A DNA stretch of 64,000 nucleotides from Haplodiscus bocki. Lineage: Eukaryota. The position numbers and the translations under genes were made by a program. Positions 1 to 40,673 of the stretch are shown here, piece by piece (within the stretch, counting starts at the first letter, position 1; each line of letters starts with the position of its first letter). Below the pieces are notes generated by a model. The model did no database searches, was not told where the DNA came from, and worked only from the letters and a program-made list of their open reading frames with translations. The stretch lies in the NCBI GenBank assembly GCA_965655095.1, contig OZ296654.1:86552001-86616000 (forward strand). Reading direction: 5' to 3'.

Positions 1-2450
1 TAGTTCTTTTTTTGTGTGCCGTTAATCGATCAATCAGATTCGTGTAAAAAGTACAATAGAGCGTTCAGATTATTAAGAGAAAGCCGTAAGGAAGTCAAAA
101 TATTTAAACAACTCAATAAGAAGTCCAAATTGCGTATATTATGTGATGTTAGCCTCGAAAGACTAGGAGCAGCAGGAGCAGTGTTAGTGTCATTAGCAAT
201 AGATTGGTGGAAACCAGTAACTTATACATCAAAAAACCTGAAGAGCTTGAAAAAAAAATTGTTTTTCAAGCTTGAAATTTTGGTGTTACTTTGGGCAGTG
301 ATATTCTTCCACAATATTGCTCTAGGACTTTGACGAATAATTGACCGTAAGTTCTTGGTTGGCGTGCTGTAAAGGAAGATTGGGAAAAATACCTATTCCA
401 ATCGGTTAACATGATGATGAATAAAGTTTTTTACCTGTAATTTCCAAACGAATCAAGACCGAAGCCAAACTTTGGGATTAGTTAAAAAATTTAGGCTGCC
501 TGGAAAACCAGCGAACAAAATATCTGATCAAAACAATTAAACTGTGGAGTTTCTCGCTCACGGTTCTCTCGGTATTGGAAATGAAAAAAAAATGTTAATT
601 GAACAAATTATACGGACCAATCAACACACTGAATGAAAAGGCAAAAACAAACAGGAAAGATTCCATCGAAGAATCACAGAATTGCTGCACAAAAAAAAAT
701 GCAGTTCAGCAGTTGAGGAAACTTTCTCCTTTTGAAACAGTTTTTTGCCTGAGGAAAAAACACTCAGACAAAAAACTATTTCAAAAGGAGAAAGACTCAA
801 AACTAAGGATGTCATCAAGTTTGACTTCTTCCGAAAGTTACGAAAGTAGAGAGAGTGTTTGTAGAGTCGGGAAGGCATCTGAGGTCTATTTCAAAATGGA
901 GAGACAATGAATGAAATTACACTCAAAAGTCAAACATTTAGAAGATGTTAGCAATGGGCCATGTGAAGTGATTTGCGAGGTTATCAGTGAATTGTTGGCA
1001 GTGATCATGGCGGTCAAAGAAGTTAAACAGTCAGCACTGAAGAAAAGAAATTAAAAGTTACATCATCGGATGTTCACGGATTTGAAAATTGAAGAGAGCT
1101 TCTTCAATACAATGACAGACAAATTACACCAAAACTTTTTACGCGTTCTGTTTTGAACATTATCCACTAACGAAATCCATATTGAGACGCAAAACCAATA
1201 TTGGTAGCGGATATCTGTTGGTTGGAAGTTCATTGACAGAGTGTTTCAGAGGCAAAAGTCGCAAGGAATGTAGAAATGCATTTACGAAATTCAAAGATTT
1301 AAAAAGGCAAAGTCGGTTGTCAGTTGAGGAAATGATCCCAAGTTACTGAGATAACTCAAGTTTTAGCGCTGGGTTTTGTACTTTTGAGGCCCTTTTCGAA
1401 AAATCAGAGGAATTTGATTCAGTGAAAAAATATAGGTTTTTAGCGAGGAAAACAACACAATTTGGTGGAAACTATTTGTAGGTACATAGGAAAAGTTATT
1501 GTAGTTTCTTTCAATCACTATTGCCCAACAAAATCTTTTCACTTGGACAAGGGCTCAGTTTATTGAGGAAAAATTATGTACTTTTTGTAACAAATTTTCA
1601 TCATGCGTGAGGCATTACTATCAAGGAAACGGAAAAGCGGCATGACCAATAGGAACAATGATTGAACGACTATGAACCAATCCGCAGATTGCTTGGGATA
1701 AAAATGACTGCATATTGTCTTATGAAATGTAAGGAGCGTTACGCAGTGCGCAGAAGAAAGAGGGAGATGCCGATTTGAAATGCAATTTCCACTGGATATG
1801 TGGATATGAACAAAATGAAAACGATAAACTTTGACCAAATTAGGTTCCAAAGTAAAAAACAATTTGTTTGAAGCAGCGGTACTGGGGTTGAAACAAAATT
1901 TAGGGACTTCTGACGTGGTAAAGTTTGCACTGTGTGGGTAAGGTTGACCATGATACCGGGCAACCCGAGCCGCATGTTCTTGAAGAAAATGGGACGAAGG
2001 GTATCAGCAAAAAAACCAAAGGAAGAGGGAAAACTTTTTCTCTCAAAAAAAGACGTGGTGGAGGATGCAAGCAAGGTGAAGAGCATGGGGCGGAAATTAG
2101 ATCTACCGAAAATTTTAATACAAATGAAGGGAGAAGAATCACTAAAACGATTGAGATCTGAAGTGGTCAAAGACGATTCGGGGAAATTTTTTACTAGGTT
2201 TGACCATTTTGAAACTCTTGGACCTAAACGCCAGGGCAACTGTGCTTTATCTAGACAATAGTGGTTGGAAAGTAGAAAAGGAAAAATCTTCCGATTTTTG
2301 AGAGCCTCAGACTTTTTTGGTAAGCAGACATGATGAAGAAAAATGGAAAAGCCCTGGAATAACGGAATGTACCCTTTCGAAAGAAAAATTGAAATTGAAT
2401 CATTGCAAACACTTAAACTGGAACAAAATTTCCAGTGATGTTTACCCTTT
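1..2450 (+). pseudogene. Decayed Ty3/gypsy LTR-retrotransposon pol (RNase H, degraded integrase region), truncated by the window start
   Basis: ORF 16-333 reads LRILCDVSLERLGAAGAVL...WKPVTYTSK.L...KLEILVLLWAVIFF, matching the gypsy RNase H pattern CDAS..GLGAVL...PV.YASR.L...ELE.LA..WA..F. An xPGK motif lies near 495-505. Downstream frames are broken by stops and frameshifts. Confidence 0.7.
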
Positions 2451-2531
2451 ATTATAACACTTATCAACTTATAGTTGTGTTTGTTACAATTGCGTTCTCT
2501 GATGAAAAAATCAAATGGTTTTGTTTTTTTT

Positions 2532-2740
2532 GGGGGGGGGGGGGGGAGTGTCCTAAGCTGCCATTTTTATACCGCATCTGAGATAGAATAGCACCATAGT
2601 TTTGCTGACACATGTTAATAAATATTAAGTGTCTGTTCTAACCCTAATTTTGATGCAAGTTGTCGAACGAGCCTTGAAATGAGAACGTTCTTTTAAAACA
2701 AACTCTGTACCTGGTGACCTCCCTTTTACTACCTAATGAG
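2532..2740 (+). repeat. Putative polypurine tract (2532-2548) and start of the 3' LTR (TGT at 2549) of the gypsy element
   Basis: G15-AG run immediately followed by TGT, downstream of the pol remnant; AATAAA at ~2617. The LTR end cannot be defined. Confidence 0.45.
2735..2740. repeat. 6-bp target-site duplication (AATGAG; partner AATGTG at 15433-15438)
   Basis: 5/6 match directly outside both termini; 6-bp TSDs are typical of Polinton integrases. Confidence 0.8.
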
Positions 2741-3718
2741 GGTAGTGTATAAAACAGAAAATGACACCAGCCCCGCCGCGTCCACCAATTTAACGGCCAA
2801 TTTTTACGGCCAAGTTGTACGGCTGAAATGTACGACTAAGTTGTACGGCTAAGCGAACGCAGACTCAAAATTTAAAATAAAAGTTATCAATGGGGGTACA
2901 CAGGAATAAAAATTAAATTTTCTAAAAAAATATTTCAAAAAGTTTTATCAATAGGTGTACACAGGAATGAGCGAAAAATTTTCAACTGATTTTTTGTTCT
3001 AAAAACACATGAAAACTTTTCTATTTACATAATCAAAGAAGTAACAAAAATTTTACACATACCATACACAGTTACATTGTAAAACCAATAATGTCGACAT
3101 AATACAATACACGCATACACGGGACTGAAAAATTTTACTACCGATTATGTCAACATAATACATGAGACTGAAAAATACTACTAGCAATTATGTCGACATA
3201 GTAAAACATACACATACACGAGATTGAAAAAATTATGTCGACATAACAGAATATGTGTATTTATTCTAATTTCTCTCTTTCTGTTTTGTCTGCTATAGCC
3301 TAGTGGTTTTTGTGACATCGGCTAAAGTTAAGGCTATGCTTGAGTGGTAGTCATAGTGTTTGGGGTTCACTTTTAGCCAACGTCCCCCTGCCTTTGTAAT
3401 CATCATGCATAAAAGCTATATGAAACTCTAACAGGAATGCTTACTCGTGTTTGCTAGAAAGTTTGCCAGTGGGGTTTTGTAAAAAGGTATTTTTGTTGTC
3501 TTTCTCCTCCTAAAATATATATTTAGATTAAACATATCTTTTCTTTTCTAATTTTTCTTTCATTTTTACAATCATTCGTTAGTAATTTTTCCAAGGTTTC
3601 TTTCAATTTTACTTCCATAACATCGTTTGTCATCTAATTGTGATAGTGTAGATCCTTTTATGAGTTGAATATACATTTCCTGGTTAAGTGATCGAGTAAT
3701 ATAATTATGACATTCTGT
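2741..3718. repeat. Left terminal inverted repeat of the Maverick
   Basis: Reverse complement of ~14505-15432. Core 2851-3486 differs from 14713-15348 by about 6 substitutions (by eye); outer and inner parts are more diverged. Confidence 0.95.
3088..3247. promoter_or_regulatory. Four ~16-bp palindromes (consensus ATTATGTCGACATAAT) in ~45-55-bp tandem units inside the TIR (mirrored at ~14952-15111)
   Basis: Copies at 3088, 3144, 3187 and 3232, separated by ACAYGRGAYTGAAAAA-containing linkers. The repeats are seen directly; a regulatory function is inferred. Confidence 0.6.
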
Positions 3719-4790
3719 TTGATAGTTTTCTCCGCCTAAACATTTTTAATATTCCTCAAATTCAACTTTTTTCCATTGAGACTTAGAAAAACCTTTTAAC
3801 TTGCTTTCACTAATATCTCTACATTTAAACGCATGCATTTTACTACTTAGACAGATGAATTCATCAATCCAAATGTTTTAAGGAGTTTCTTTTTTAAATT
3901 TACCAATCACTTTTTGTTTCCATTACTAAAACCTTCATGATTTTCATTCAAACTGCTGAAAACAAATCAGTCTTCAAGATTTTTTAAGTCTTTTATAATA
4001 TGTTTTGTATATATACATAATATGAAACTATCAGTATCCTTAAGATGTAATTGAAGATTCTCTAGTCCAGTTTATGAATGTAATTTATCATATTAAGTTT
4101 CATAGATTAATAAATTGCTAAATTCCAGTACTGCAATTCCAAGATGAATTGGTTCATCCATAAGAACTTCGTTTTTTTTTAATTGTAAAAGTCTCATAGA
4201 TTGTATAAGGTTTATGAATTCCACTGAATGTTAATTTTGATAGTTGTTTACAAATTTTATCATTACCATACTTTTTTATTTTTTCTATTTCTGCTCTTTC
4301 TCTAACATTTTCCATTGTTTTTCCATAAAATGAGTAATTGAGTGGTTTACAGAAGTCTCTTTCAAAATCATTTCTCGCGAAATTTCTCTTTTGTGTATTA
4401 AAATTGATATTTTTCTCTAATCATTTTTTTTGTTTAAATGAAATTAACTCTCGAATGTTTTCAACTATCATACCTTGTCCAACATAAATTTTTAACATCC
4501 TTTAATGAATCATATAAATCTTTCTATCACTCCAACCCTAGAAAAATTTTTTAGTTATTGTATAAGTATCTGGTTTATTTTTTTTCATATATGGAGTGAA
4601 ACTATCAAGATTAATTTTTCCATTTTCAGGAGCAAATGGAAAATGTTTTACTTTTTCCCTAAATTCATCAAAAAAATCTAAATCAGTTTCAACGAAAGAA
4701 CCAATATCACTATCATCGGGAGTATTTAATAAATTGGGAGTATTTTTTAATATATACAAAAAGGTACAAAATATATTTTTTGTATTTTTC
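3570..4790 (-). pseudogene. Protein-primed family B DNA polymerase, C-terminal part only
   Basis: GSFVETDLDF...FPFAPE (4538-4759 ORF); motif B NDFERDFCKPLNYSFYGKTMENVR (~4300-4372); motif C LKDTDSF (~4024-4045); C-terminal TLSQLDDKRCY (~3615-3650). Exonuclease and motif A regions are absent. Confidence 0.92.
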
Positions 4791-4829
4791 GACTGAGATT
4801 TTGTTTATATATAATTTTTTTAAATGGAT

Positions 4830-5090
4830 ATATAATTTATGGAAATCATTAACTTCATATAATTGATACAAAAGTATACAAAGGCAGAATGTTTTCTAAT
4901 CAGCATATTTTAATCTAGTAATAGAATTTATATTCTTCCTTGAAATTTTACTAGGTTGATTTTTTCGCTTTTCTACAATGTATCCACATGAAAGAAAAGT
5001 AAATTCATATTTATATGGCAATAAGCATTATCGATTACAATGTTTACAATGTTTGCAAAGAGTATCAGATCTTTTTAATAATTTCATCTT
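4830..5090 (-). pseudogene. Small Cys-rich ORF remnant
   Basis: MKLLKRSDTLCKHCKHCNR*CLLPYKYEFTFLSCGY; contains in-frame stops. Confidence 0.4.
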
Positions 5091-5124
5091 CAGTTAGTTC
5101 TATTTGTTAGGTAATATTTTATTC

Positions 5125-5977
5125 ACTTAAGTTTGTTTCGTTTATAACTTATTACTTGATTATTTTCTTCAAGAGTTGAACTTGTTGCTCTTAATAGATT
5201 CTCTTTATATCTTTCTGGTGAAAAGTTGATGCAATAGCTATGGATTGTGTTATGTGTGACTTCATAATTTGTACATAATTTATAATTCCACTTCGTACTA
5301 TCAATGTTACTGAAAACTCTTTTGATATCAGCTGTGCGAACGGATTGTCCTAATTTATATTCTGGTTACTGTTTCTGTCTTTTGTCTTGGAGATTTGAAT
5401 AGACTTGTTTTTCACTAGTTTTTCCACTGGCTTGAATTGGAGTCATTTTTTTGAATGTTGTATAATACTATTGTATTGTTTAATAACAGACGGTAATTCA
5501 CTTAAGCAATCAGAACTTCGTTTTTCAAATACTGGTTTCTTTAATAACTTCCTTATAGTTCTATTAACCCTTTTTTAAATTGAGGGTCCCTTATCAGTAA
5601 ATCGTGAATAAGGATGAATTTTTTTAACTTTCAAGAAAATTTGAAAAATAATATCGTATAATTCCTTCCCTCTATCGCTTTCTATTTTATAAGGTCTTCA
5701 TTTCGATGTTGCTAGAATGTTTGAAAACTCGTCTGTTAGTGTTTAATTGTTCTTTTTTTAACGTAACAAACCAAGTATTTATTGAGCAAATGTCGATTAC
5801 GAAGAATATATACCTCAATTCATTGCTATTTGACAGTTTACAATCTGAAAAATCTGCTTAATCGATACTCCATATTTCAGTGATATGATTATAAATTTAT
5901 TTCTTAGTTGGATAAAGTTTTTTAAGTGGTTTACTATAATATTTATCATTGATGATCTTCGTTGAATCTTGCTTCAT
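5125..5977 (-). pseudogene. Maverick retroviral-like (rve) integrase
   Basis: EIWSID*ADF; RPYKIESDRGKELY; HPYSRFTDKGPSI*KRVNRTIR; HSKKMTPIQAS; YKLGQSVRTAD. These match the DDE core and C-terminal motifs of Polinton integrases, with stops and frameshifts. Confidence 0.92.
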
Positions 5978-6500
5978 TTAGCCTAATTAATTGATAGGTT
6001 TTAATAAATTGTAGTTGATTTTCTAAGAAATTAATTCTTATTCCCTTTTGCTGATAAACTTATTTCAGTAATGGTCGAGTTTTTTCCAACGGAAAGCCTC
6101 TTTTCTTTCATATTTATTGGATACATCAAATAAGCAAACAGGCTTTACATGACCAATTTTTAAATTCAACCACTTCATCTCTGGAGTCATTTGATATTCA
6201 ATCCATTTTCTAAAAGTATCATTATTTATTCCTAAAAATTTTTTTGTGGAACATAATTTCGATTTACCGTTCAATGCATCATGAATCCTACATCCTGTAA
6301 CATTGATCAAACGAAAATTGACATCAGTTTCCTTTCTTTTCCAACAACGAAACAAACTTTCTCCTTTTTTCTGTTTTTTGCACTATAGTTTTTCTTTTAC
6401 TTTCTCACTTTTTCAGGATATTTTTATTTCAATCCTTTGTTTTTTGAGAACTTTTATCATATTTCGTTGTCGTGTAATAATCTTTCATACAACTTTTTCA
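5950..6500 (-). pseudogene. HNH-like endonuclease of the giant-virus/phage type
   Basis: KRKETDVNFRLI...RIHDALNGKSKLCSTKKFLG...FRKWIEYQMTPEMKWLNLKIGHVKPVCLFD...AFRWK, then after a frameshift TRPLLK*VYQQKG. This fits the pattern M.W.N...HIDHI.P...FD...F...NLQPL....N..K. A Lys-rich N-terminal extension lies upstream. Confidence 0.7.
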
Positions 6501-6529
6501 GAGTGTTTTTTGTGTTTTTCATTGTAATT

Positions 6530-6895
6530 TTGAATCTTGCTCATTCCAATTGAAACTATCTTGGAGTAAAAGTAGTTTGTTTCTGACAATTACATCTTGG
6601 GTTTGAACAATGATCATGCAATTTAACTATATCACCTTTACTATTTAAGTCACACCATGAAGAATTTGACATTCATGAACCATGGTTGTTTTTCCTTTTT
6701 TCATAAAAATTTCTCGGCGTGTCATTTACTTAGTAAAAATTTGTCGTTTATTTCGACCACAATTACTGCAAGAACCTTTGATAATATTAACAAGTTTTTG
6801 ATTTTAAGGGTTTGTTTTTTCATATATGTTTTGCTTCATAGTATGAGAAGAAAGACGACCTCCCAAGCAAAAAATTGTTTTTGATTTAAACCCAT
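6530..6895 (-). pseudogene. Two small tandem Cys-rich ORFs (starts at 6895 and 6725)
   Basis: First: FCLGGR...VNIIKGSCSNCGRNKRQIFTK* (DUF5679-like Zn ribbon). Second: WCDLNSKGDIVKLHDHCSNPRCNCQKQTTFTP. Confidence 0.5.
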
Positions 6896-7603
6896 TTAAT
6901 TACTAAAACCCATATTCGGTAGAAGCACTCGGTTGAACATCAATATTTTTTTTCTTTCTAGGTTTGAAAAAAATTATATTTTTACAAAAGTTAATACTCA
7001 CATTAAAATGGCTAAAATACTATTTATTTTAGTTATTTGTTCTGGTGAAAGGGAATCGTTACTTATGTTTTCAGCAAAAATATCTTCTACTTTGAAATCC
7101 GTATTCTTCATAACTCATTTTCGGTAATCAAGATAATGAGTTTTAATTTTTTTTCCAATTCCAAAACTGCTTTTTCAGCTATCTTCTTATCTATCATCGA
7201 TTGTTTCAAATAATTACTCATAAAACAAACTAATTACATTTTTCCAACCTCTTAATTTAGCATCTCTTATTTTTTTTTAATTTATTCATTCGTTCTTAAG
7301 ATATTATCAGATGTAAATAGTCCAGTACAACTAGTTGTTACTAGACCATTGTTTGGATTTAATAATGACAATCTGGACGTACTCATAGATGATACTGATA
7401 CTAAAAAAATTTCAGTGATAAAAAAAACTTTATTTTTTCAAACTTTTATACTTCTTCTGATACTAATCATTATGAATTTTAAGTGATTCTAAAATAATTT
7501 CATCATCGTGCTTTTTTTGTTCTTTTTTCAATTCTTTAATATAATCATGTTTGTTTTTTATTTTTATTAAGTCTGGATCATTGTTTATATTTGGATAAGC
7601 CAT
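6896..7603 (-). pseudogene. Hypothetical Maverick protein with coiled-coil and hydrophobic segments
   Basis: Starts MAYPNINNDPDLIKIK and ends NMGFSN* abutting the next ATG; several frameshifts. Confidence 0.45.
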
Positions 7604-7623
7604 TTTTTATTAGACGGAAAATA

Positions 7624-8069
7624 CTATTCTATTAATGATACAGCGACAAACTCTTTTAATATTCTTTGCCTAGGTATTCTTTCCAGAGCATGATCCTTTG
7701 TTATATTTATTTCATCATCAGTAAGTTTGCCTTGTTTTAATATGTCCGGACCTGTTAGTGATAATAATAGTATCAACGATCGTTTATGTCTAACATCTTC
7801 ACACATTTTAGCAAAGTCATGCTCCATTTACTTATTCAAAACCTTTTCCAAATAGATTCCTCTTCATTTTTATTAAAATTTAAGTCTTCTCCATTAAGTT
7901 CCATTAGAAAATCTTCAAACTCTAAACAAAGACGACTATATCACTTTTTGAATACCCACACTGGGCTAATAAGTCAGCATCTTTTTTAAATAAAAACAAT
8001 AATTTTACAATAATTTCTACAATAAGGTATTGATTCGAATAAATCTTTAAAATAATTTTCATGATCCAT
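7624..8069 (-). CDS. Two small hypothetical ORFs (8069-7828 frameshifted; 7827-7624 intact, 67 aa)
   Basis: MDHENYFKDLFESIP... and MEHDFAKMCEDVRHKRSLILLL...; each begins directly after the previous TAA. Confidence 0.5.
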
Positions 8070-9387
8070 TTAATATACAGAATGTGTTTTTGTAATACTA
8101 ATAAAGCGCATATCAGCATGAGGAGTATATATTTAATCATATATCAAATTAATACCATAACTTTTTACAGTAAAATTTAAGCTAACCAAAGTCCATTTAG
8201 TTGATGAATTGCTATGCCGAAATTTTTGAGGTTAATTATATCTAGTTGACCAAGTATTATCTTCTAATATTAGTTGATTTCCAAAACGACCCATCGATTT
8301 TAGCGAATCATTTGTTAAAATTGAAAACATTTTATAATAGAAAGTTATATTAGAAAGTTAGAAATATTCAGTTCTTTCGGAGTAAACGTACACATTGTCC
8401 CTCTGGTTGCCAGAGCTTGTTTCTATATACAAAAAACGATCCCCAATGGGAAGTAAAGAAATACCTTCAGAAGCACCTGTTGGACTGTTTGTTTTTGTTG
8501 CTTTTGTATGAATTTGTTTTTTACCATTGTTATTTTTATCATTACTATTTATTTTCCAGTATTGTAATAGATATCCACCACTAGTTGGATAAATATTAAT
8601 AGTTGTAACTGTAACTTGTATTTTATAAATATTTCATGAGATCATAAGCATCATTTCCAACAGATACTTTGAGATAGTTTTGCAGTGTTTGATAAAAATC
8701 TAAGAACAGTAATTTTATGTGAATCATCATCAACATTTTTTTATTTGCTAGTTCACTATCTGAGCTTGGGTTTCTATTATTCGTAATACCAATTAGGTTA
8801 GTTATTTTATTATTACCAATTCCATTGTTTTGATCGTTGAGTATTAATAAGAAGTCTCTTCTATTTCTACTGTTTTCATATCAGCTATCAATATATGATT
8901 TGGTAGGCAATTCTGTTATCGTTTTCAGTGATCTTAAAGCAGAATTGAGAATTATAGAATCTTGTTCACCTAATTTTGATTTTTGATCACGATTTAATCT
9001 TCATATAGAAGAATCAGCCACGCGATAAAAAACTACTTCATCAACGTAAAATTTTGGTGTAAGGTGTTCTCGGACAGCATGTAAACTATTTACTTTGTCA
9101 AAACGAACATTATAAAGATTTTTATCGTTAAAGTCTACATATGCAGTGTTTCGTATTATACTACAATCAATTAAACCACTATCAATATAAGTTTTTTTAG
9201 CAGCATATGTATTTTTTACAGGACAAGGTAATTTCCTATTTTTAAATTGATTTTTCATGTGAATATCTTCTTCTTTAGATTCTAGATAATTGGTCCTCAA
9301 ATAGGGTTTTTGTACGAATATACTGGTATCAACTTTAATACCATAATCTTGTGAGGAACACCTATTACCAAATACATTTATCGGCAT
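8070..9387 (-). pseudogene. Putative virion fibre/spike-like protein
   Basis: Repeated motifs DIHMKNQFKNRKLPCP...AAKKTYID, DFNDKNLYNV...LTPKFYVD, ELPTKSYID and ELANKKNVD resemble the D..N..I.NL..P....DAATK.YVD repeats of phage/viral tail fibres. Followed by a beta-rich C-terminal region ending THSVY*. Confidence 0.55.
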
Positions 9388-9399
9388 ATTTATATACCC

Positions 9400-9790
9400 A
9401 AAATACGTTTTTAAAATAGCATCAAAAAATTTCTTTCTTTCTATTAGACAGAAAATTTAATAACAATAGATACCACATAACTTACTATATATATCTTGTA
9501 TTCTATAATTTTGATAAAAGAATGCTTTAGGTAATTGGTTTAGTAAAAATTGATCTGGTTGACCACCAGGTGAATCAAAGTAATATGATTCGTTTTTTAA
9601 ATATAGAAACACACCCAATGAGTCCTTCCCATACCAGCTTTACCAATATTAACAAACCTTTTATCAGAAGATATTTTTGAATCACTAGGATTTATAGGAT
9701 AATTATAAATTCTTTGTAATTCACTCTCATTCATAGTATCTTTTTTCAAAACAATTTTTTTCATAAAAACTTTTAAAATAAGTGGAGTCT
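9400..9790 (-). pseudogene. Adenain-like cysteine maturation protease
   Basis: FVNIGKAGMGRTHWVCFY...SYYFDSPGGQP...IQDIYSKL, i.e. the H, D and Q/C motifs GTHW..., YFDSFG, Q...S..CG. Confidence 0.88.
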
Positions 9791-9793
9791 TTT

Positions 9794-10894
9794 TTATGTA
9801 ATATTAACCTGAGTAATTTCATTCCCATCCGATATCATCTTATTTTCTCTATGCCTGATAATTATTTTAAACAATCGAGCATTATTAGTAACACCTCTAT
9901 ATACTTCAAATAGTCGAACTTTCTGGGGATTACTATGATCACGTTGAAATCTAAGATCAATGACTTGAATTGGATATTTATTTTTCATATCAGTATAACT
10001 TATAAAAACTTCAAGTAGTTCCTCTCCAACGTACATTTAATAAATTAATTTAAGATGTCTATATCGATCAATACAATCATTAGAAGTGTTATGAAATTTA
10101 ACACCATCTCGTGGATATCCCACACCATCGATGTGAACATGATATTTTCTCATATTCAGATTGTCAAAACCAACGATATTGTTTGCTTTGTTTGGAACTC
10201 CTACTCTAACAGCTGTCTGATGAGCCACTATAGATATCTTGGAGATTTTTTTGAGCACTCCCAATATCCACTTGGTATTGTAACTGAGTATCAATTGTTT
10301 TTCTATCCGTACTCTATAGAATCAAATGATAAAGTAAATCTATTTTCAATAGAATCATTAAACATTATTTTTGTTTCAAGATTCCGGATGATTCTTGGAA
10401 CTTACAGAATTAATTTATCAAAGTTTATTTTAGTATTATCACCCAGTATTGCATGAAACGTATCTTGTATATCAGCTCTTTTGAAAGTTAGATGAATTCC
10501 TAACTGTTTAAAATTTTTTAAATTGTTCTACAAAATCCAAAATTATGTTCTAGGGGAGAACTAATTCTCCTTCAATTTTATTTTCGTTCGCAGCTGCGTC
10601 ATGATCGTTAATGAGTAGATGTTTAAGAGTCGTATTTTGGACTTGAACTTGAGGTTCATCAATTTTATCAAAGTGAGATAATAAATCTCAATCATTGCTT
10701 GTTAAAGCTCTCATAATAGTTGAAAGATGACCCACATAACTTTTAAGTTCTATGTCTGAACCTCCTGTAGTTGACAACCTCGTTTCTTTAAAACAGTATG
10801 CAAAAGCGTTATTTACTAATTTAATAGCAAACTAATTTAAGATTGAATCATCAATTGTTTCATTGTCTATAAAATGGAAACCTTCAAGGCTCAT
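9794..10894 (-). pseudogene. Major capsid protein (double jelly-roll, Polinton PY type)
   Basis: MSLEGFHFIDNETIDDSI...LVNNAFAYCFKETRLSTTGGSDIE...GHLSTIMR; FDNLNMRKYHVHIDGVGYPRD; KNKYPIQVIDLRFQ. Frameshifted. Confidence 0.85.
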
Positions 10895-11064
10895 TTATAT
10901 AATAAAGAACCATTTCCTAATAAAAGTTGGTGTTCAAAATTTTGTAAATTTGGAAATAATTGAGATTCATTATTTTCATATTTATGATTAGGTTTTTGTC
11001 TGTTTTTTTTTTTTAAATATATTCTTGGTTTTATTAGTGTCTTTGGCTTTTATTAGGTATAAAT

Positions 11065-11854
11065 TAACTTTCCTTGATTGATAATCTGACTTTTTTTGAT
11101 TGTCCCATGAATGATACTTTTTGATTTTTTTCATTTTTTGTTTCAAGTCTGTTTTTTGAAATAATGTCTTTAATTTCCATAATTTACCATTGTACCCCAC
11201 CTCTAAAATCTTCATTATATTCAAAACCAGGACCGACATCCGCTGTAAACTTGTCAAATATTCTTGATCTCTTACCCTTGATAATCAATCCCTGAGCGAT
11301 CTCAGTTTCGAAGCAAATACAGTCAAATGATATTATGTCAACGGGATTAGTGATAGATTACATATTTTTCATATATTGTTACTGCATCGAAACCTAAACG
11401 ATCTCTTATGCTATCATCCGGAAGAAAACATATTTGACTAACTTAAAAGTTTGGTCTAGTTTCTGTAATATTACATGCTGTAGAAAAAGTTGCTTTGTTA
11501 ACAAATTGGTAGTTTCTTTCTGTAAAATGGCCCTCTTTGATAATATTTCCTTTTTAATTCATCATTTGAGATCTCAAGTTCATATGCACCCTTGGGAATG
11601 GTAATAACATTAAAATCATCATCATTAATTGATATTGTGAAATAAAAGTTATTATTTTTGGCTGCAACATTAAATATTCCGTTTTGACCAGTCAGAAAAG
11701 TGACAGTTATTTTATATTGCCTATTATATGTTTGACGTGGTTGAGCTAGATGTTCTTCATGATTACATTTTTCCATAACAATCAACATATGCTCTCCAAT
11801 CTTAGGTCTTGCATTAAATGCGATTTGCTCAAAAATTTTAGTAGGTAGTTCCAT
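11065..11854 (-). pseudogene. Minor capsid (penton, single jelly-roll) protein
   Basis: GIFNVAAKNNNFYFTI...VITIPKGAYELEISNDELKR matches the N.F.F...I.IP.G.YE...IN..I motif; ends IRLSIKES*. Confidence 0.8.
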
Positions 11855-12761
11855 TCATTGGGTATTAAATTTATTAGGAGCATTTCGATTTTGTTCTTCG
11901 TTTTGTATTTCATTTCGTTTGTATAATTCATCTTTTAGATAACCAGTTTCTGTTAGAGTGTCAGTATGGCCAGATAGATTTAACTATAATAAAGTTTCTA
12001 ATCTAATATAAAATTCACTTATGTTGGATGGTATGATACTCTTTCAATTCCATCCCTTCCAAATCAGATTTGGTTTCGCCTCGAACAGATCTTTCTAAAA
12101 TTATATATACTTGACCATCAAGGTTTGTTTTAGTATATCTATCGGCTATATACTAAATCAGTAGATACCTGATTTAGTTTCTCTTGGTCTACGTATATAA
12201 TCATCTTAATTAAGACTTTTCATTTTATTTTGAAACTTTACTCTATCTAGGTCATTTAACTTTTTCAGTGGTTTGTCAGTTGCATCAGTAAGAACTTATT
12301 GACGATCAGTGATTATATCATACTCATCTTCATTAGTTTTAAGTTCTGAATCACTTAATATTTCAATAGGTATATTATTCCAAATTAATTCGCCAAAATG
12401 TCTTTCTTCTAAATTAAAAAATCTATTTTGTCTTTCATAATTGATAAAATTTTTTCTAATGATGTATCAAATTTTACACCTGGTTGAACATCACTTCGTT
12501 TCGAGTCTTTTCTATAGCTAATGTTTCAGTCTCATCATCATCAACATCTGATTTGTTCACTGTCTCACCTAAATTTTTAGTAGTCTTATTAACTTTATCT
12601 AATTTTTTAGTGATATGTGATAGTTTTTCTGCTTTTTTTTTATCATGAGTTTGTTTTAAGATTCCATTTTTGTATTTAATTGCTCGTTGAATTTTCTGTT
12701 GTTCTGCTAAGTTACTCAAATGTATTCAATCTTCCCTTCTAACATTATGATAAATCCTCAT
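11855..12761 (-). pseudogene. Conserved Maverick hypothetical protein (PZ-like C-terminus)
   Basis: Coiled-coil N-terminus MRIYHNVRRED*IHLSNLAEQQKIQRAIKYKN; C-terminus PSNISEFYIRLETLL*LNLSGHTDTLTE...DELYK resembles RL.LL....AGH......I.DEL. Confidence 0.55.
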
Positions 12762-13501
12762 TTACTTGATATGAAAAGGGGAGCTATCTGAAACGAATGA
12801 ATTTTTCAATCGTAATCGATATCGAGCTGTATTTTTATCTTTAGTCATATCAATAGTGAGTGGTTGATATTTTTTATCCCAACAAGTAGATGTTATTTAA
12901 TCGAATTTGTTAAGTGTCAAATCTATACTTGTTTTGTCTTGGTAACGATTTGCTACAACTCTGAAATCGATAGGTTTGAAGGTGTGGTAGATATTTCCAT
13001 TTGCTCGGATAGTTTTTTTGGATGTTCGTAGTATTGTTGGCTGATTATGAAAATAAACAAATTATTATGTCTACAATTTTTAAGCATTGCTTGTATCCGA
13101 AAATCGTTCCTCTCTTTTTCGTTTAAATCATTCAAGTTATTAATACCTCCAACTTCGTATTCTTGTGGAAATTTTTTATCTTCTATTGATTCATATGTCT
13201 CTATTTCAGTATCTGATTTTTGGAAGTGTTTGTCATTAAATATCTCATCAATTATTAAATCAATATCATCTTAATTGAGAATATTTGAGACTATGTGAAA
13301 TGGTATATAGTTGCTAAAACGTTTAAATACTTTTTGATATAATTATTTAAGTAGAGATGGTGAGTATATGTATGTTTCATCATATTAAATAATATTATAT
13401 AAAAGTAAATTTGATAAAAAAATACTTTTTCCCGATGAGCTCGATCCACAAATAACGCATCTGAGTGGATGAGTTGGGTATAAAAATTTATCCGTTATCA
13501 T
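12758..13501 (-). pseudogene. A32/FtsK-HerA-type genome packaging ATPase
   Basis: PLRCVICGSSSSGKS (Walker A, ~13425-13470); NDLNEK (Walker B remnant); CRHNNLFIFIISQQYYEHPKK (A32 Arg-finger/sensor motif). Confidence 0.92.
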
Positions 13502-13680
13502 TTATTAGTTATTATAGGTTCAATCATTGTGTATATTATTAATCCTATGAGATGGAATAATAATGTGTTTGCTGGGATTGATGGAAGTAAGTATTTGATA
13601 ATAAAATTAACATCTTTGTTTTCATTGTTTGTACAATTAGTGAAATAATTGTAATCATCAGTAATATTTAACGCATACAT
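13498..13680 (-). CDS. Small membrane protein, 60 aa, open frame
   Basis: Hydrophobic stretch IIKYLLPSIPANTLLFHLIGLIIYTMI; coupled to both neighbours (TAA-ATG upstream, ATGA downstream). Confidence 0.55.
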   Translation of the reverse strand: MYALNITDDYNYFTNCTNNENKDVNFIIKYLLPSIPANTLLFHLIGLIIYTMIEPIITNK

Positions 13681-14480
13681 TTATTGAACATCAAATGGTA
13701 AATTGTCATAATTTCTAATTAGAGGATGATTAAGAGTTCAGTCTAAACGATTGATTAGAATGGGATTTTTAGCAGTAATCAATTTTAATTTGAGTTCAAA
13801 TATCTCCATTAGTTGTTTAATATAATAATTATAGTTCATATATCTTCTATCACTAACAGTTTTTATATTCATTTCAATTATACGTGAAAACTTGTAACGT
13901 TTTAGAATATAATAAACAGTCCAATATATTGAATACCTTTTCAAGTTAACAATTCTAATATTAGGATAAGATTTTGTTTTATTTTATGGAGTGAAATCCT
14001 TAAATATCATTTTAAAATCACATTTAACAAGAAATGAATCAATTTTTTTTGTAATTAGTGATAAATTCGTTAAAAATTCTATCTATATCAAATAAATCTG
14101 GATTTTAATAGTATAATATCTATGAATTCATTTCCCAAATTGAAAATGTGTAAGAGATTTCAGATGGTCGTTTTTTGATTTCAATTTAATTGTTTTCAAG
14201 ACATACACCACAGTAGTAAACAATATTTATATGTATAAGATTATTTGAAATAAAAATATTTTTCTAAAATTGTAGTCGTATTGTTGAATTGTTATCTTTC
14301 ACGAACTTTAGTAAAATAAGTAGATGATTTCAGATGTTTTTCATAAAATCCTTCTCTACATAAATTATCACAAATATTGCAGAATGTTCTATATTCTCCA
14401 TGATCATCACAATACATAACTTTTTGATTAATATTATCACTATTGCTTTATTCGGTTGAAAATGTTTGAAATGATTTATA
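13681..14480 (-). pseudogene. Zinc-finger (C2H2-like) ORF remnants
   Basis: YYCGVC...KSKNDHLKSLTH (~14150-14220) and YRTFCNICDNLCREGFYEKHLKS (~14325-14395). Confidence 0.65.
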
Positions 14481-14504
14481 TAAACTCTCAAGTTTCTCCA
14501 TACT

Positions 14505-15432
14505 AAGAACAATGTGACAATTTATTAGTCGATCACTTAACTATGAAATGTATCTTCAACTCGTAAGGAAAATCTACACTATCTGAATTAGATGATAAAC
14601 GATGTTATGAAAGTAAAATTAGAAGCAAACCTTGGAAATACCAAAAATTTGGAAAGAAAAGATATGTTTAATCTAAAAATACATTTTAGGAGGAGAAAGA
14701 CAACAAAAATAACTTTTTACAAAACCCCACTGGCAAACTTTCTAGCAAACACGAGTAAGCATTCCTGTTAGAGTTTCATATAGCTTTTATGCATGATGAT
14801 TACAGAGGCAGGGGGACGTTGGCTAAAAGTGAACCCCAAACACTATGACTACCAGTCAAGCATAGCCTTAACTTTAGCCGATGTCACAAAAACCACTAGG
14901 CTATAGCAGACAAAATAGAAAGAGAGAAATTAGAATAAATACACATATTCTGTTATGTCGACATAATTTTTTCAATCTCGTGTATGTGTATGTTGTACTA
15001 TGTCGACATAATTGCTAGTAGTATTTTTCAGTCTCATGTATTATGTTGACATAATCGGTAGTAAAATTTTTCAGTCCCGTGTATGCGTGTATTGTATTAT
15101 GTCGACATTATTGGTTTTACAATGTAAATGTGTATGGTATGTGTAAAATTTTTGTTACTTCTTTGATTATGTAAATAGAAAAGTTTTCATGTGTTTTTAG
15201 AACAAAAAATCAGTTGAAAATTTTTCGCTCATTCCTGTGTACACCTATTGATAAAACTTTTTGAAATATTTTTTTAGAAAATTTAATTTTTATTCCTGTG
15301 TACCCCCATTGATAACTTTTATTTTAAATTTTGAGTCTGCGTCCGCTTAGCCGTACAACTTAGCCGTACAACTTGGCCGTGAAACTGGGGGACGCGCCGG
15401 GGCTGGTGTCTTTTTCTATTTTATACACTACT
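14505..15432. repeat. Right terminal inverted repeat of the Maverick
   Basis: Mirror of 2741-3718. Includes an inverted copy of the last ~45 codons of pPolB (STLSELDDKRCYESKIRSKPWK on + at ~14572-14637). Confidence 0.95.
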
Positions 15433-15639
15433 AATGTGCTAAAAATGTTCACATCACAGTTACATTGAAAACATTAAGGCCCTTAGATGGAAAGGTTGAA
15501 ACTTTGACAGGAACATGTTCTCAGGTTTTGCCCTAAAATTGGCATGCAGGTTGTTGGAATTTGTTAATTTGTGTTTTGCAACATCCTTTTTAGCAGCGTT
15601 TCCGTAGAAACCCATGTCTTGGGGTGAATTCGAAAATCC

Positions 15640-22189: not shown

Positions 22190-24162
22190 CATTTTTTCGC
22201 TAGTAGAAGGCCCGTTTTTATCAAGTACTTCGGTATAAAAAACTGGCATTTGAAACAGTGACCAAGTATGCCAGAATTAAATGGAGAAGTAATTTCTCAA
22301 ATTTTTCTTTGAAACTACCGGCTATAACCCTTCCATCAAACTTTCAGTCGATGGTTTCTTTTATAGTAAAGTCTTGATACCAGTTTTTGCATTGGAACCT
22401 TTGTGGAAGGAATTAGCCGAAAAAAACGCCAACGATTGTTTTTTCTTGCATCTCAGACCTAAAAATAGCAAAAACTACCAGCTAAGTCTCTTCAATCAAT
22501 ACTCAACCATGAACTTTGTATTTGTATATTGCTACTGGGTTGGCGAATATTGCGTTTGGTTTCATGGATTGCAGAAATGATACGGAGAAAGTATCAGGAA
22601 ACGCAACTTTGTTTGAGCCGTATTGATACATAGACTTGATCTTTTTTGGAACAACCTCAATTTCTGTAATCACGGTCTCAATCATAAAATATCCATCTGC
22701 AGAACATCTTTCAATGATAGCGTTTTTGGAAAATGTCATTGCTTTGCAAATTTCATGGACCGATATAACCAAAATGAACAAGTTGTCTGTTTCTTTCTCC
22801 TGAAAAACATACCTGCCTTTCTTAAAACCAAAGCATGCAGTTCGTCCATATGTCCATATGGTTATCGGCCGGTTTCTTGAAAACTTGTGAAAAACATACG
22901 GGAGGTCAATTGTTTTGGTAATTTCCTCAAAACGCCAATTTAAGAGGCGCAAAAGGGCACAAAATGCACAATTGTATGATATGCAATACCAATTCGATTC
23001 TTTTCAAGATAGCCGGCTAAACTTCTTTCTTCAAGGTTTTAGTCAACAACTTCCTAAATCTAGAACATCATTTGAAAACAATCTTTGGAGAAACTTTTTC
23101 TTTGTAGGAAACTTTGATGACCAAAAATGCGAGACGCTTCAAAAATTTTCAATTTTTCCTGATATTCAAAGCTTTTGTAATCCATAACTCCTTATTGCAT
23201 TCCTTCTTTCGTTCCTCAGGGTATGAATCAACACTTGTTTACTCAATAAAATTTAGTTGACTGCCGAACAATGCATTCAATTCCTTGAAATGGAAACCTG
23301 ATGGGTCAAACTAGTCAAAAGTTGAAGATAGGTCTGATTCGTCTTGGTATTCAAACTCGGTTTCCTTCAAATCAAATGTCAACATTTCTTCCGTCAATGT
23401 TTGCATAAACTTTTCTGTGTTTTGAACACAATGATTCAGTTTCCATATTTCTTTTTTCATCTTGTCTCGGAAACTTTGATAACCCTAAATTGCCGAACGT
23501 TTCCCGTATGTTTGATGCTCCTTTGTAGTTTTTTTCCACAGCAATCGGCTACAATTATACATTAAGACAATTTTGACAGGTTGAACAATTTTAAAAGGTA
23601 AAGTCTCAAGTAATTTTGCTCTCAGTGGAATGTTGGTTGACTGAGAATTCCAAAAATTGCTTATGCGTGTGTCTCTTCATAATATTCCAACGCATCACTC
23701 CAGAAATACCGACTGGACTTCTTCCAACAATGTCTCAGTGGACAATGTTAATTGTGTACAAAGTCACTCAAAAAACATATTCCGAAACATACTTCATGCC
23801 CTCGAAGAAATTAAGGCTGAAATTGGCACAAAAAGTGACTTGTGCTGGCGTTTCGCTATATTCAACTTCTTTATCTCTAAAAGTTCTGGCTGGATTTCCA
23901 CTATCAAGATCTCACAAGATAGTTTCAAATTTTTGACAGGTGAATCAGTAAAATTACTTCGGGTTTTGTATTTTATTTTGGAGCCCTGATAAGTTGATAA
24001 TGCCAACAATTGTGGAACTCAGTGGTGGATGTGATGTTTGTGGAAAACTTTTGAAAACTAGACTCAAAAGATTATTCTCGTTTTTTCACTGTCTACAAAA
24101 ATTGAATAGAAACTTTGTAATTGGGCGAAAAATATGGCGGTGCTGGCCGGCTGTCTTGTTTT
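22190..24162 (+). mobile_element. Helentron-type non-autonomous element (HINE-like), copy A
   Basis: 3' end GGGCGAAAAATATGGCGGTGCTGGCCGGCTGTCTTGTTTT; degenerate 5' ATTTTTTCGC at ~22191; collinear inverted homology with copy B. Confidence 0.6.
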
Positions 24163-25875: not shown

Positions 25876-28080
25876 AAACAAGACGGCCGTTCAAGTCCAG
25901 CATATTTTTTGCACAATCACAAGTTTTTGATCAACTTTTGCAAAAAAAAAATGAAAAACGAGAATACTGTCATCAATCCTGCTTTTAAAGTTCTCCAACA
26001 AAATCAACTCCACTATTGATTTTTGCAATTGTTGCGGTTGCCATTGTGAAGCTATCCGGGTTCCCAAGCAAAGAACGCAGCCCAAAGTATTTTTCTAAAA
26101 CAACTTTTGGAAAACTGAAACTATCTTGTGAGATCTTGATACTGGAAATGCAACCAGCAAACTTACAGAACATGCGTTTGAATAAAGAGAAAAGCCACAA
26201 CAAATCACAATACTAAAAATATCAGCCCGTGAGAGTACGAAGGCAGGAAATTTTTCGGAATAAGTTTATCGAGTAATCCTATACAGAAAAAAAAATCCAC
26301 TGAGATCTTCACGGAAGAAATCCAGACGGTAGTGTCGGAGACAAAAGAGTTGTAGTCTTGAAAATAACCACATACAGATGCAAGACTTGGAACTATCAGC
26401 CAATCAAGACTTTGCCGCGAGTAACAAAATCTAACATTTATACTTTGAAAACTTTATTGTTTAGAACCTATCGACTGACATTTCGATGAATAAATGCAGC
26501 CAGTAGCTTTGCATAAAAAGCTCTCATACAAAAAACATCATACATTTACTTAACTTTTGTCAATTTGAAGCTATCATTTTTTTCGAAGAGTCCATGGAAA
26601 ATGAAGATTTGAATGATGAATCACTGTATACAAAAACAAATTTGTTGATTAAGACCATGAAACAAAAAAAACTGACAACAACTTTGAGGAAACCGAGTTC
26701 GATTATTCGATTATGAAGACAAATCATACCAATATTCAGATTTTGGCTAATTTGTTACATCAAGTTTTCGTCGCAATCAACCAAAAGCTTTGCATAGCAA
26801 TCATGTATCTCTTTATGAAAAGAGAAAGGTTGATCGATGCCCAGATGGATGAAATGGAGCCAAAAAATTTCGAAAACAAAAAGTCTGGTTCTGAGAAAAA
26901 CTCGAAGACTTTTAGAATTTTTGGCTATTTTCGTCCATAAATATTCCAATGTAAGAAAAGTTTCTCGAAAACTGAACAAAGAATGATGCTGTAGAGTTAC
27001 AGAAACTGTTGACTAAAACTTTGATGTAGAGACCGAATCGAAGTTCACGACAATTCCTACAGATATTGATTTTGTGGCAAAATCAGCCTATCAAATTGGC
27101 GTTGCTAGGAATCAAACGCAAAGTTCGTTATTGCTGTATGTTGTTGCATTTGCTTAAGAAGTTGACTGACACCTTGGTAAGTGAAATGCAGCCACTGGTT
27201 TTCGAGAATGGCAGTTTTTTTGTCGAGAGAAATCAGCCCAGTACCACATTTTGGCTATATCATTCCATGAAGTTTGCGATGCGAGGATACTTTCTAGAAA
27301 CATTAACAAGGAACGATGTTGTGCAGATAGATAATTTTTGTGTGACACCATGATTGAAGAAAATGAAAAAATTGTTTTGAAAAGAATGGAGTCTTTTTAT
27401 CTAAAGTATTCAAACAAATTAGAATTTTTTGACATTTTCCGCCTATTAGGTTTCTGTTCCCAGGAACCAAACGCAACATTGGACATTCAGTTAGCGTTTC
27501 AAAACTAGAAAAAACTTCAACTGGGACACTGATTGGAGAAAAGTAGCTGGTAGTTCTGGAGAATTTGGGGCTTGAATTTTGAGATAAGCAGTACTGTATG
27601 CACTATTTGTCTAAATCCTTCCATAAATCTTTGAAAGGAAGAATCGTCAATGCAAACATTGTTGTTGGAAAATGTTTTGCCGGAAGGAAAAAAAATTGAG
27701 ATTGTGATGGAAGGGTTACGGGTGGTAGCTTTGAAAGAAAATTGGTTCGACTTTCAAAGTTGATGATACGTGCAAGGAATTCCTGCTTCTTTCGGTCACA
27801 GGAGTTTCTGTTGGACAATCAACCTGCAAAAGAAACGTTTACTGAAAACTTTTTTATATGGTGACAATTGTTGATTGAGACGTTGGTGAATGACAATCAG
27901 CGCGTAGTTTTGAAAAACAAATTGGTATCAATTTGGATTTGGAAAATTAACTGTCTTTTAATGGATCCTTGTGTCAGATTCCCGGTGTTCAAACCGAAGT
28001 ACTTCGAAGTAGAAGTAACAATTTGTTGATTGTGGACTTGATGAAATCGTCCGGTCGGCCGTTTTGAAGAAAAATGACTT
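25876..28080 (-). mobile_element. HINE-like element, copy B (inverted relative to A)
   Basis: Starts AAACAAGACGGCCG. Shares TGAAACTATCTTGTGAGATCTTGATA.TGGAAAT (~26117-26150 vs ~23895-23928), AAGTACTTCGGT (~27995 vs ~22223) and the KLP..TLPS block with copy A. Confidence 0.6.
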
Positions 28081-34517: not shown

Positions 34518-37212
34518 TTATTTTCCGTCAAAAAAAATTCGAGACAAAAAGTATCAATGCTGTGGTCGGAGTTTTATTCCTTTTCATCTCGCGCATGACG
34601 CGCAGACTTTCGTTATTTCGCATGATGCAGAGCAGAATAGCTGGTAATACAAAGATTTGGGTGTTGAGAAATGGTGAGTTCGAATCCCACAGTCACCCGT
34701 ATTTCTTAAATGTTGCGAAAAAAGTGAGAAAAAATGAGAGTTTTTAATTATAATGAAAAATTAACGTTAGATGTAATTAGATGATTTTTTTTCAGTCTTT
34801 GGTTATCGGTTACTTTCACTATCTTAGTTTTTTGGCTGAAAATTTTTTTACCCCGGGATATTTTGTCTTGAAACTTGACGCTCTGCAATCCCCACATTGA
34901 AGAAATATCAAAAATGGGCAAATTCTGTTGAATTTCCTCAATTATGCAGAAACACAAATCTTTATTCTTTCGTTTGGGGTCTCAATCGGGAACCTTTTAC
35001 TTGTGTAAGAGTCAATTTTTGAAAAATAACTGGTTTTTGCCTTGGATTACAATCCTCACAGTCCTAAAAATTCAAGAAAATCTATGATTTTTGGTTTTTC
35101 TCGTATTTCAAACTCAACCGTCTCAGAAACTAGTGGTTTGATGTCTTCCATCAAATTAACAATCAAAAACTTCGCAACTGTACAGGCGGATGCTGTGAAA
35201 GCAACCAATGACTTCGATTCTTGCATCAGAACAGTCCGAATTTTCCAAAAAAGCCATCAACATCGATTCATTTCGTTCTTTGAATTCATGTTTCTCCGAA
35301 AATTTGGGTTTTGTTCCTTTGGAAAACTTCTCAATCGAATCCCGCACCGTTATAAAAGGAGTTCATTTGAAGAAACAATGATTTCGATCGTTGCATTGAA
35401 ATCTTCATAGTCCCAAAGTTCCAAAAAGTTCTTTTAATTTTGATCTATCTCTGCTTTCGAACACGTAGTCCTCCGTAACGACAGTTTTGACCTCAACAAT
35501 TGAGGTCTCCCTAGATTTTTAATCCCAGTGGAAGACCATTCGTTGAGTAAGTCAATAGTTCTGATCCATGCATCGAAAACCTGATATTCCGAAAACGCCA
35601 AAAAGTGCTATTAAGATTGGTTCATCTCACTTTTCAAAGAAATTTTTATCAGTTTATACTAGTGTGATGTCTTCAATCAACGTCCGAATTGAAAACGTCC
35701 AAATTGTAGCAGTTCAAGAGGTTGAAAAATCTCAGACTTTTTTCCTTGCTCAGGAATCTTGATAGTCCGAAGCTTTCCGAAAAATTTGCATTTATTAATG
35801 ATTCATCAACTATATGTTAGATATCTTCCGTCAAAGTCTCAAAAGAAAAGTTTACACTAAAAAAGTAGGATTCGACTTCAAAGTTGCTTTAGGACAGGTT
35901 TGTTTCTTCCAGCAAAAACCTCAATCGAAGTTTGAAGCTTTTTCAGATGTAATCAATGAAAAACTTTTTGATTTCTTCCTTGCTCTGGAAATTTGATAGT
36001 CTGATGCTTCCAAAAGTGCTAATAAGTTTTATCGATCTCCCATTCCGACATGATTTTGCTTCCTAACAACAAGCATGATTTCTTGTATCGGTGTCTCAAT
36101 CGAACAACTTATACCTGTGGTGGAGAGTTCAATATAAAATCTTTCATTGTGTTCCTTGGAAAGAAGTTCTGATAGATCAAAAATTCCAAAAAGACCTACT
36201 AGTTTCACTTCGCCTGGAGGTATAAACTCTGTTTCTATGCAACAATCAGCCTAATTTCTATCATCAGGTTTTCAACGGACAGACTTTTGGTCTTAGATGA
36301 GTTTTGGGTCAAAAGGCATTGATTTTTTTCCTTTTGTTGGAATTTTCCTGGTTCGAAAATGTCAAACAACTGTGATTAGCTGTGAAACCTTTCCCATTTT
36401 CTAATTTATAGTTCTGCACAGCCACTGACTTAACTTCTTTCTTCAAGGTTTCCATTTGAAGTTTTCTTTTTCTGCTAGGCTCCTCAGTTTTGAAGTTGTT
36501 GATTTAGGTCTTTGCGCCGGAATCCTTATACTCCGACAGTGCCAAACTGCTTTTAAATTTTACTATTTTCATTTTAATACTCGTCTTTCTCCTTAACCAC
36601 AGGCTTGATATATTCAAAATGGAAGTCTCAATTGAAAGTCAAATTGTTTCATCCGTGAAATGTAACTTTGATGGAACAGACTTGCCATAAAGTGCTGCTG
36701 GTGTTGACATTCCTCGATATTTAAACTCAATTTTTTTTCAGTTCTACCTGCTTCATTTTCTTACCAAGGTGCCAATGGATAGCGGACTGTTCGTTTCCAA
36801 AATTCGTGGAAAAATATTCGTTGCGTCGGATTTGTGGTCTTGTTTGACATGAAGTGGCAAAATGTTATTTTGATATGTCTCGATATTCCAATTCGTCCTT
36901 CTGGAAAACTACCGTTTTGAATTTTTCTATCAAGGTTTGAATTGACGGTGATATAGCTTTAAATAATTTTCAGATGGAACAGTCTCTCGATATCTCCTTT
37001 AGATTGGAATGTTGATAGGTTGATTATGCGAAAAGGGCCAATTAGTATTCTTATTTTGTCGATTTTCAAACTCATACTTCTCTAAAGCTATCGATTTGAG
37101 CTCTTCGGGCAATGTCTCCATCGAGATGATTTCTGTCAGTATAATGTTTTCAAAAATGATTTTTTGTGTACGTTGTCGGAAAATATCGCAGTGCGACTGT
37201 GCCTTTTGTTTT
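34518..37212 (+). mobile_element. HINE-like element, copy C, with ~175-bp internal tandem array (~34900-37140)
   Basis: 5' subTIR TATTTTCCGTC (34519-34529); 3' GTCGGAAAATATCGCAGTGCGACTGTGCCTTTTGTTTT with a TCGCA/TGCGA hairpin; collinear inverted homology to 42146-44700. Confidence 0.7.
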
Positions 37213-40633: not shown

Positions 40634-40641
40634 GTGTGTGT

Positions 40642-40673
<32 letters not shown>
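40634..40673. repeat. (GT)n microsatellite
   Basis: Directly visible GT run with one interruption, followed by G-tracts. Confidence 0.95.

Follow-up and report, generated by a model that had tools for sequence, protein, structure and literature searches.

The two terminal inverted repeats (TIRs) of a decayed Polinton/Maverick copy in Haplodiscus bocki are layered: the arms differ by 1% in a central core and by 13% outside it, in what looks like a partial reset of the clock that TIR identity provides. An earlier note on this DNA had proposed that the core was homogenised long after insertion, and that proposal now stands as the best reading of the data. Specifically, we consider it probable that about 0.65–0.7 kb of TIR core was homogenised in place, after insertion, by gene conversion from one arm to the other. 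The evidence comes from one locus, which lies near the left end of the window (the whole stretch of 64,000 nucleotides that was analysed).

Zones of the terminal inverted repeats

Comparison of the whole window with itself gave one strong inverted pair, 2742-3714 against 15431-14511, and alignment of the arms within the window set their lengths at 976 bp (left) and 922 bp (right). Judged from its sequence, the interval 2741-15432 is a decayed, internally deleted Polinton/Maverick. It is AT-rich (GC 26–31%) and has the long TIRs, the (AGT)2 end, the 6-bp target site duplication (TSD), the polymerase pPolB and the retroviral-type integrase of these elements. Mavericks have been described as carrying an (AGT)2 or (AG)n end motif, a 6-bp TSD and TIRs of 46–1,447 bp and as encoding pPolB, integrase, ATPase and capsid, with most genomic copies degraded (PMC8097293). 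The present copy resembles that description in its end motif, TSD, TIR length, pPolB and integrase; an ATPase-like match falls below the cut-off and a capsid candidate is so far a lead. It differs in being broken and in having lost most of pPolB. The end motif AGTAGT is intact on the right arm and has one mismatch on the left, where the first base of the TIR deviates from the motif that the right arm retains. The two TSD copies likewise agree at five of six positions (chance about 0.006), confirming a mismatch that had been seen before. The parts of the two ends are as follows.

2735..2740, + strand: left TSD, AATGAG, matching 15433-15438 at 5 of 6 positions
2741..3716, + strand: left TIR, 976 bp, from self-comparison and arm alignment
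2741..2850, + strand: left outer zone, with 7 substitutions and two extra 13-bp units; X1 and X2 contigs equal the window here
2851..3486, + strand: left homogenised core, with 6 differences; contains internal sub-repeats of 43–50 bp
3487..3716, + strand: left inner zone, with 22 substitutions in 200 columns, a 24-bp indel near 3554 and an overlap with the 3′ tail of pPolB
14511..14712, − strand: right inner zone, without the 24 bp found in the left arm and in relative P0076
14713..15348, − strand: right homogenised core, from arm alignment
15349..15432, − strand: right outer zone, AGTAGT end intact
15433..15438, + strand: right TSD, AATGTG, matching the left TSD at 5 of 6 positions

Aligned without gaps, 2851-3486 and the reverse complement of 14713-15348 differ at 6 of 636 positions (2856, 3071, 3204, 3283, 3344 and 3394), where about six had been estimated. 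In global alignment the outer zone shows 7 substitutions over 84 columns and two gaps of a 13-bp unit, the array of that unit having 4.7 copies in the left arm and 2.7 in the right; the terminal ~110 bp thus have the substitutions and the repeat-number difference attributed to them. The inner zone, aligned in the same way, shows 22 substitutions over 200 columns, together with gaps of 24, 3, 1, 1 and 1 and a terminal gap of 2; its identity by substitutions is 89%, inside the range of 80–90% that had been suggested for the inner ~230 bp. The best block of low divergence, 2806-3516, extends slightly beyond the core as first delimited. Within it 7 of 698 columns differ, compared with 28 of 222 outside it (7/52 outer, 21/170 inner), and its log-likelihood ratio of 50.9 compares with a maximum of 20.6 in 300 permutations. 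Outer and inner divergence are equal (p = 0.81), as is expected if both zones record the age of the insertion. After correction, divergence is 0.138 outside the block, 0.039 over the whole TIR and 0.010 in the core.

Inside the core there is a weak gradient, with 1 difference in 347 bp and then 5 in 284 (p = 0.08–0.10), which is compatible with nested tracts or repeated events without showing them. A separate zone of tapering identity at 3487-3553 (5/67) was considered and set aside, being indistinguishable from the deeper inner zone (p = 0.34). The right arm has lost the 24 bp of the longest gap, as P0076 keeps these bases. When the 11 differing codons of the inner zone were compared with 37 relatives, the left arm was derived at 3, the right at 2 and neither at 4, with 2 synonymous; by this comparison, lesions in the inner zone have hit both arms.

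Gene remnants and the age of the insertion

The interior and the right TIR hold these remnants.

3596..4735, − strand: pPolB remnant, C-terminal ~380 codons, from tblastn with P0115, P0102 and P0113; 8 stops and 2 frame changes
5150..5977, − strand: broken retroviral-type integrase; PF00665 in 4 of 7 relatives, 37–45% identity by tblastn
9460..9630 (approximate), − strand: probable cysteine protease remnant in two frames, motifs found by eye
10040..10321, − strand: fragment resembling a major capsid protein of the double jelly-roll type; a lead, with an Atlas feature score of 0.96 to clusters of PF21738
11070..11854, − strand: broken conserved gene of ~260 aa with viral look-alikes, matching no Pfam family
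13322..13474, − strand: fragment of an A32-like packaging ATPase; PF04665, E = 8.5e-4, 19.3 bits
14501..14641, + strand: the final ~45 codons of pPolB repeated in inverted orientation within the right TIR, from tblastn

Every remnant mapped in the interior is on the minus strand and is broken, the genes carrying stops and frameshifts, much as the earlier note had described genes riddled with stops. The pPolB remnant is 49–63% identical to its relatives. Direct Pfam scans of the window for pPolB were blank; a protein search, with 673 hits among 780 candidates, returned relatives that identify it as a protein-primed polymerase, and relative P0113 matches PF03175 above the cut-off (E = 7e-14). 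The N-terminal two thirds of pPolB went undetected, the first 800–900 residues of the relatives' polymerases finding no match, and because of this some 2 kb or more is probably missing at 4735-5150, between the integrase and the pPolB remnant. The integrase is supported by a tblastn E of 4e-57; the 15 stops in its alignment were left out of account, as the alignment passes through out-of-frame stretches. The match of the ATPase fragment to PF04665 is under the curated cut-off of 22.8 bits, and Atlas recognition of the capsid-like fragment is below threshold despite its score to the PF21738 clusters. The remnant at 9460..9630, with its motifs in two frames, is a probable cysteine protease of the adenovirus type; Pfam gave no match in this region. 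Across 17 ORF fragments and 9 read-through frames, Pfam returned nothing above the curated cut-off.

The inner zone of the TIR is a duplicated 3′ tail of the polymerase gene, with ~45 codons inverted again in the right arm; the tail lies within the TIR at 3596-3716 on the left and at 14501-14641 on the right. In relatives P0076 and P0135 reading frames continue from the polymerase tail into TIR-like DNA, and for this reason the adjacency of tail and TIR appears to be a trait of the family. Among the relatives, P0113 (136 member sequences) has a polymerase with an intein and a homing endonuclease (PF14890, PF05204, PF14528), and a weak match to endonuclease VII lies upstream in P0113, P0115 and P0102.

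The damage to pPolB provides a second measure of age. On the assumption that 5–6% of random substitutions create stops, the per-arm divergence of the core predicts 0.3–0.35 stops in the remnant, in whose 382 codons 8 were observed (p < 1e-8), and 6% per arm predicts 3.5–4.3 (p = 0.03–0.07). This stop load fits an age of ~13% and, taken at face value, excludes one of 1%. By the corrected divergences, that of the whole TIR understates the age about 3.5-fold and that of the core alone about 14-fold (13.7), which bears out the earlier warning that TIR identity would make the element look too young. Some of the gene decay may predate the insertion, because the stop load is above the 6%-per-arm prediction and most of pPolB is missing.

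These last two observations also suit a different history, in which a copy that was already defective was re-mobilised and inserted recently, its core having been corrected in an extrachromosomal fold-back (panhandle or racket) before integration and its damage having been inherited. Polintons replicate through fold-back forms, and adenoviruses correct their ends; correction in a panhandle is expected to homogenise the termini and to be accompanied by a fresh TSD. The ends of this element tell against such a history. Four sites of the terminal 43 bp differ, namely the terminal base and three more (p = 9e-4 at the core rate), and with the TSD the count is 5 of 49 (p = 1e-4 at that rate). A fresh TSD would be expected of a new insertion, and pairing of the ends should correct the termini before anything else. 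We regard a recent insertion of this kind as unlikely. Of the two mechanisms originally offered for the homogenised core, gene conversion between the arms fits these data, and panhandle copy-correction is disfavoured because the termini and the TSD were left unrepaired.

The core in the family and in the run contigs

The element belongs to a very large family. Contigs from four public runs were compared with the left arm only, over 2300-4300 and at 80% likeness; the runs derive from two samples (S1, S2) of one study, which is possibly the source of the assembly. The contig evidence below concerns 32 of 20,333 pieces and 40 of 487 difference rows, chosen by the tool. Between 4,118 and 5,336 contigs were matched per run, and in X1 the summed depth reaches ~80,000–180,000 at 2836-2969, 3305-3438 and 3841-3907, against 14–22 in the flank, a depth that is not to be read as copy number. 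In the left flank, at 2560-2700, all four runs contain a related copy ~80% alike, placing the element beside or inside another repeat.

Sixteen of the 40 listed rows fall in the TIR, 11 in the core and 5 in the inner zone. The comparison with the family for shared derived sites, which the earlier note had put forward, favours concerted change. Among the listed core rows where the copy departs from the family majority, 9 of 11 are common to both arms, with one left-only and one three-way; among the listed inner rows none of 5 is shared, and in each of them only the left arm departs and the right arm sides with the family (Fisher p = 0.005), a contrast that is partly circular, since a core with so few arm differences is bound to show sharing, and in which the non-coding core may hold more founder-specific letters than the coding inner zone. 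At the 9 core sites 86–100% of the summed depth carries a letter other than that of both arms. Per 100 bp, the listed departures from the family amount to 1.7 for the core, 2.2 for the inner zone and 2.4 for the interior. Hence the core appears to have aged like the remainder of the element, but with both arms in concert.

The way in which the contigs break is also informative. In X1 and X2 a 5.3-kb flank contig covers 2300-2886 with no other letters and stops 30 bases past the left-only site 2856, and an inner contig starts at 3457, 30 bases before site 3487, and continues into the interior; the 30 bases from 3457 include site 3464, where both arms depart from the family majority. Ends at 2886 and 3457 are the branch points of a 31-mer graph that would be expected if a second copy shares the core, and the break at 2886 has a second possible cause, since a family motif of very high depth lies next to it. 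Loose ends were also seen at 3715 and are given no weight here. In all four runs the core contig is deeper than the single-copy mean, by factors of 1.76, 1.79, 1.65 and 2.23, and at 3521 and 3655 the letters found only in the left arm have single-copy depth.

This two-copy depth has to be set against the idea of conversion in trans, in which a third, younger copy at another place in the genome served as the template for both cores. Templates exist in so abundant a family. Nonetheless, two events with matching limits would be required; the core contigs stand at only about two-copy depth; among the listed pieces from other copies, the longest over the core are about 82–84% alike, so that ~16–18% of their letters differ; and the letters shared by both arms at 3449 and 3464 are carried by little more depth than that of the locus itself. 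Conversion in trans is, in our view, very unlikely.

A further concern is that reads of one arm overwrote the other during assembly or polishing, an error to which inverted repeats are prone. In X1 and X2 the contig over 3457-3947 is 13 letters and one gap off the window (in X3 from 3491), so that a mismatch recurs in three of three S1 runs; contigs listed beside it match the window exactly, and the mismatches may reflect either the other allele or an error in the window. Even in the worst case, with all 13 in the inner zone, 9 of 200 differences would remain (p = 2e-4), plus the 24-bp gap. Against an artefact, these contigs, which are independent of the assembler, break where they should if the arms truly share the core, and at about doubled depth. 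Furthermore, the flank contigs end without a loose part and, among the pieces listed, no diverged left-core contig runs on from the flank, and in S2 a 344-bp core contig matches the left arm at every letter and has 2.2 times the depth of single-copy sequence. The earlier note had named uniform divergence hidden by polishing as a danger to its own reading; the contigs do not bear this out, the core being shared, at about two copies and bounded where the arms diverge. The chance that the core is an artefact is accordingly very small.

Least credible is the view that the core is under functional constraint, or conserved in all copies, and thus slow to change. The very high summed depth in parts of the core does indicate that related motifs are widespread. 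The core nevertheless departs from the family majority, with a letter unlike that of both arms prevailing at 9 sites and other copies differing over long listed pieces as described above, which argues against the equal conservation across the family that had been raised as an objection; selection would in any case leave the identical private letters on both arms unexplained, and we consider such constraint extremely improbable. We also rejected the symmetrical insertion of a younger element into the two arms, because the core runs collinear with the TIR and adjoins the pPolB tail in P0076 and P0135 too.

Probable conversion between inverted arms and its known kin

Gene conversion between the arms, in place and after insertion, would have proceeded as follows. 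A Polinton/Maverick was inserted long ago with matching TIRs of ~0.95 kb, and neutral decay then brought the divergence of the arms to about 13%. Much later, the central ~0.65–0.7 kb of one arm would have been rewritten from the other, inverted and 11 kb away. The likely route is non-allelic gene conversion, in which a strand invades the folded-back arm to repair a break or stalled fork. A crossover may or may not have accompanied it; it would invert the interior and would be indistinguishable in one allele. The ends of the tract lie near indels (13-bp unit differences outside, the 24-bp deletion inside), and these heterologies may have stopped extension of the heteroduplex. The 6–7 residual differences in the core could be later mutations or sites that escaped conversion. 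Both conversion as the cause of the layering and the role of the indels are what we infer from the pattern.

It is informative to place this copy among systems in which repeats of one locus are known to convert each other. In plants, pairs of long terminal repeats (LTRs) show conversion tracts of 100–1000 bp and underestimated ages, with possible converted regions in 25% of 25,144 pairs (PMC7251063), and intra-element conversion of LTRs in retrotransposons is also treated in PMC4921805. The present case resembles these in involving two terminal repeats of one insertion, a tract within 100–1000 bp and an underestimated age (PMC7251063); it differs in that the repeats are inverted, the element is DNA virus-like, collapse to a solo repeat does not arise and a crossover would invert the interior. 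Palindromes of sex chromosomes undergo conversion between inverted arms that are >99% alike, span 14–70 kb and carry functional genes, and the diagnostics used there, sites unlike the outgroup yet equal between arms and doubled read depth (PMC7023750), have their counterparts here. In contrast to those palindromes, the tract is 0.7 kb, the spacer is 11 kb and the element is dead, with no sign of function.

For the transposon Galileo it has been proposed that one TIR is repaired from the other, that conversion occurs and that the TIR is extended by capture of internal sequence (PMC3573991). Its TIRs are likewise long and internally repetitive, and their extension resembles the duplicated pPolB tail described here. 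However, Galileo is a P-element-like cut-and-paste transposon, and the mechanism put forward in the accessible portion of PMC3573991 serves to explain TIR extension and chimeras; a layered profile of identity within one copy is not described there. For the Polinton/Maverick group, titles and the beginnings of abstracts, mainly of openly accessible papers without supplements, contained no report of TIR conversion, a scope that does not establish its absence from print. The main text of PMC8097293 does not contain the word “conversion”, and the accessible text of bioRxiv 10.64898/2026.10.13.758929 applies the term gene conversion only to replacement of the replicase. The process itself is known for LTRs and palindromes, and the copy at 2741-15432 is a tidy single-locus example of it, not a new system.

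For Polintons, the identity of the TIRs offers an intuitive clock and a flag of activity. If partial resets are common, ages taken from TIR pairs of endogenous DNA viruses will need the correction that is recommended for LTRs (PMC7251063), and so copy-rich a genome would itself serve as a natural assay of conversion within chromosomes. One may speculate further that arm-to-arm conversion is routine in this large family and acts as a ratchet, in which TIR blocks fenced by indels are reset repeatedly while the zones beyond the fences age. We think this rather unlikely. Were it true, dead copies throughout the genome would keep young-looking, pairable ends, counts of “recently active” Mavericks would be biased, inversion polymorphisms of 11 kb would be predicted, and the family would amount to a natural experiment in which conversion rate and tract length could be read thousands of times at a fixed spacer of 11–20 kb.

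Elsewhere, a scan of viral contigs for the terminal motif gave 0 matches, and 70 pattern matches to related loci in viral contigs yielded 0 confirmed. In metagenome contigs 4 of 103 were related loci; these are 1.2–2.1 kb long and 68–84% alike to the interior, and none extends into a TIR. In the rest of the window, the ten ORFs of at least 120 aa downstream of the element have no Pfam match above cut-off. Two old inverted pairs lie there (22546-24161 with 25876-27480, 64% identical over 1,667 columns; 36661-37093 with 42290-42740, 69% over 455), together with a 350-bp direct repeat at 43678-44431 (76%), a decayed tandem array of ~112-bp units at 60641-61411 and a (GT)20 run at 40634-40673.
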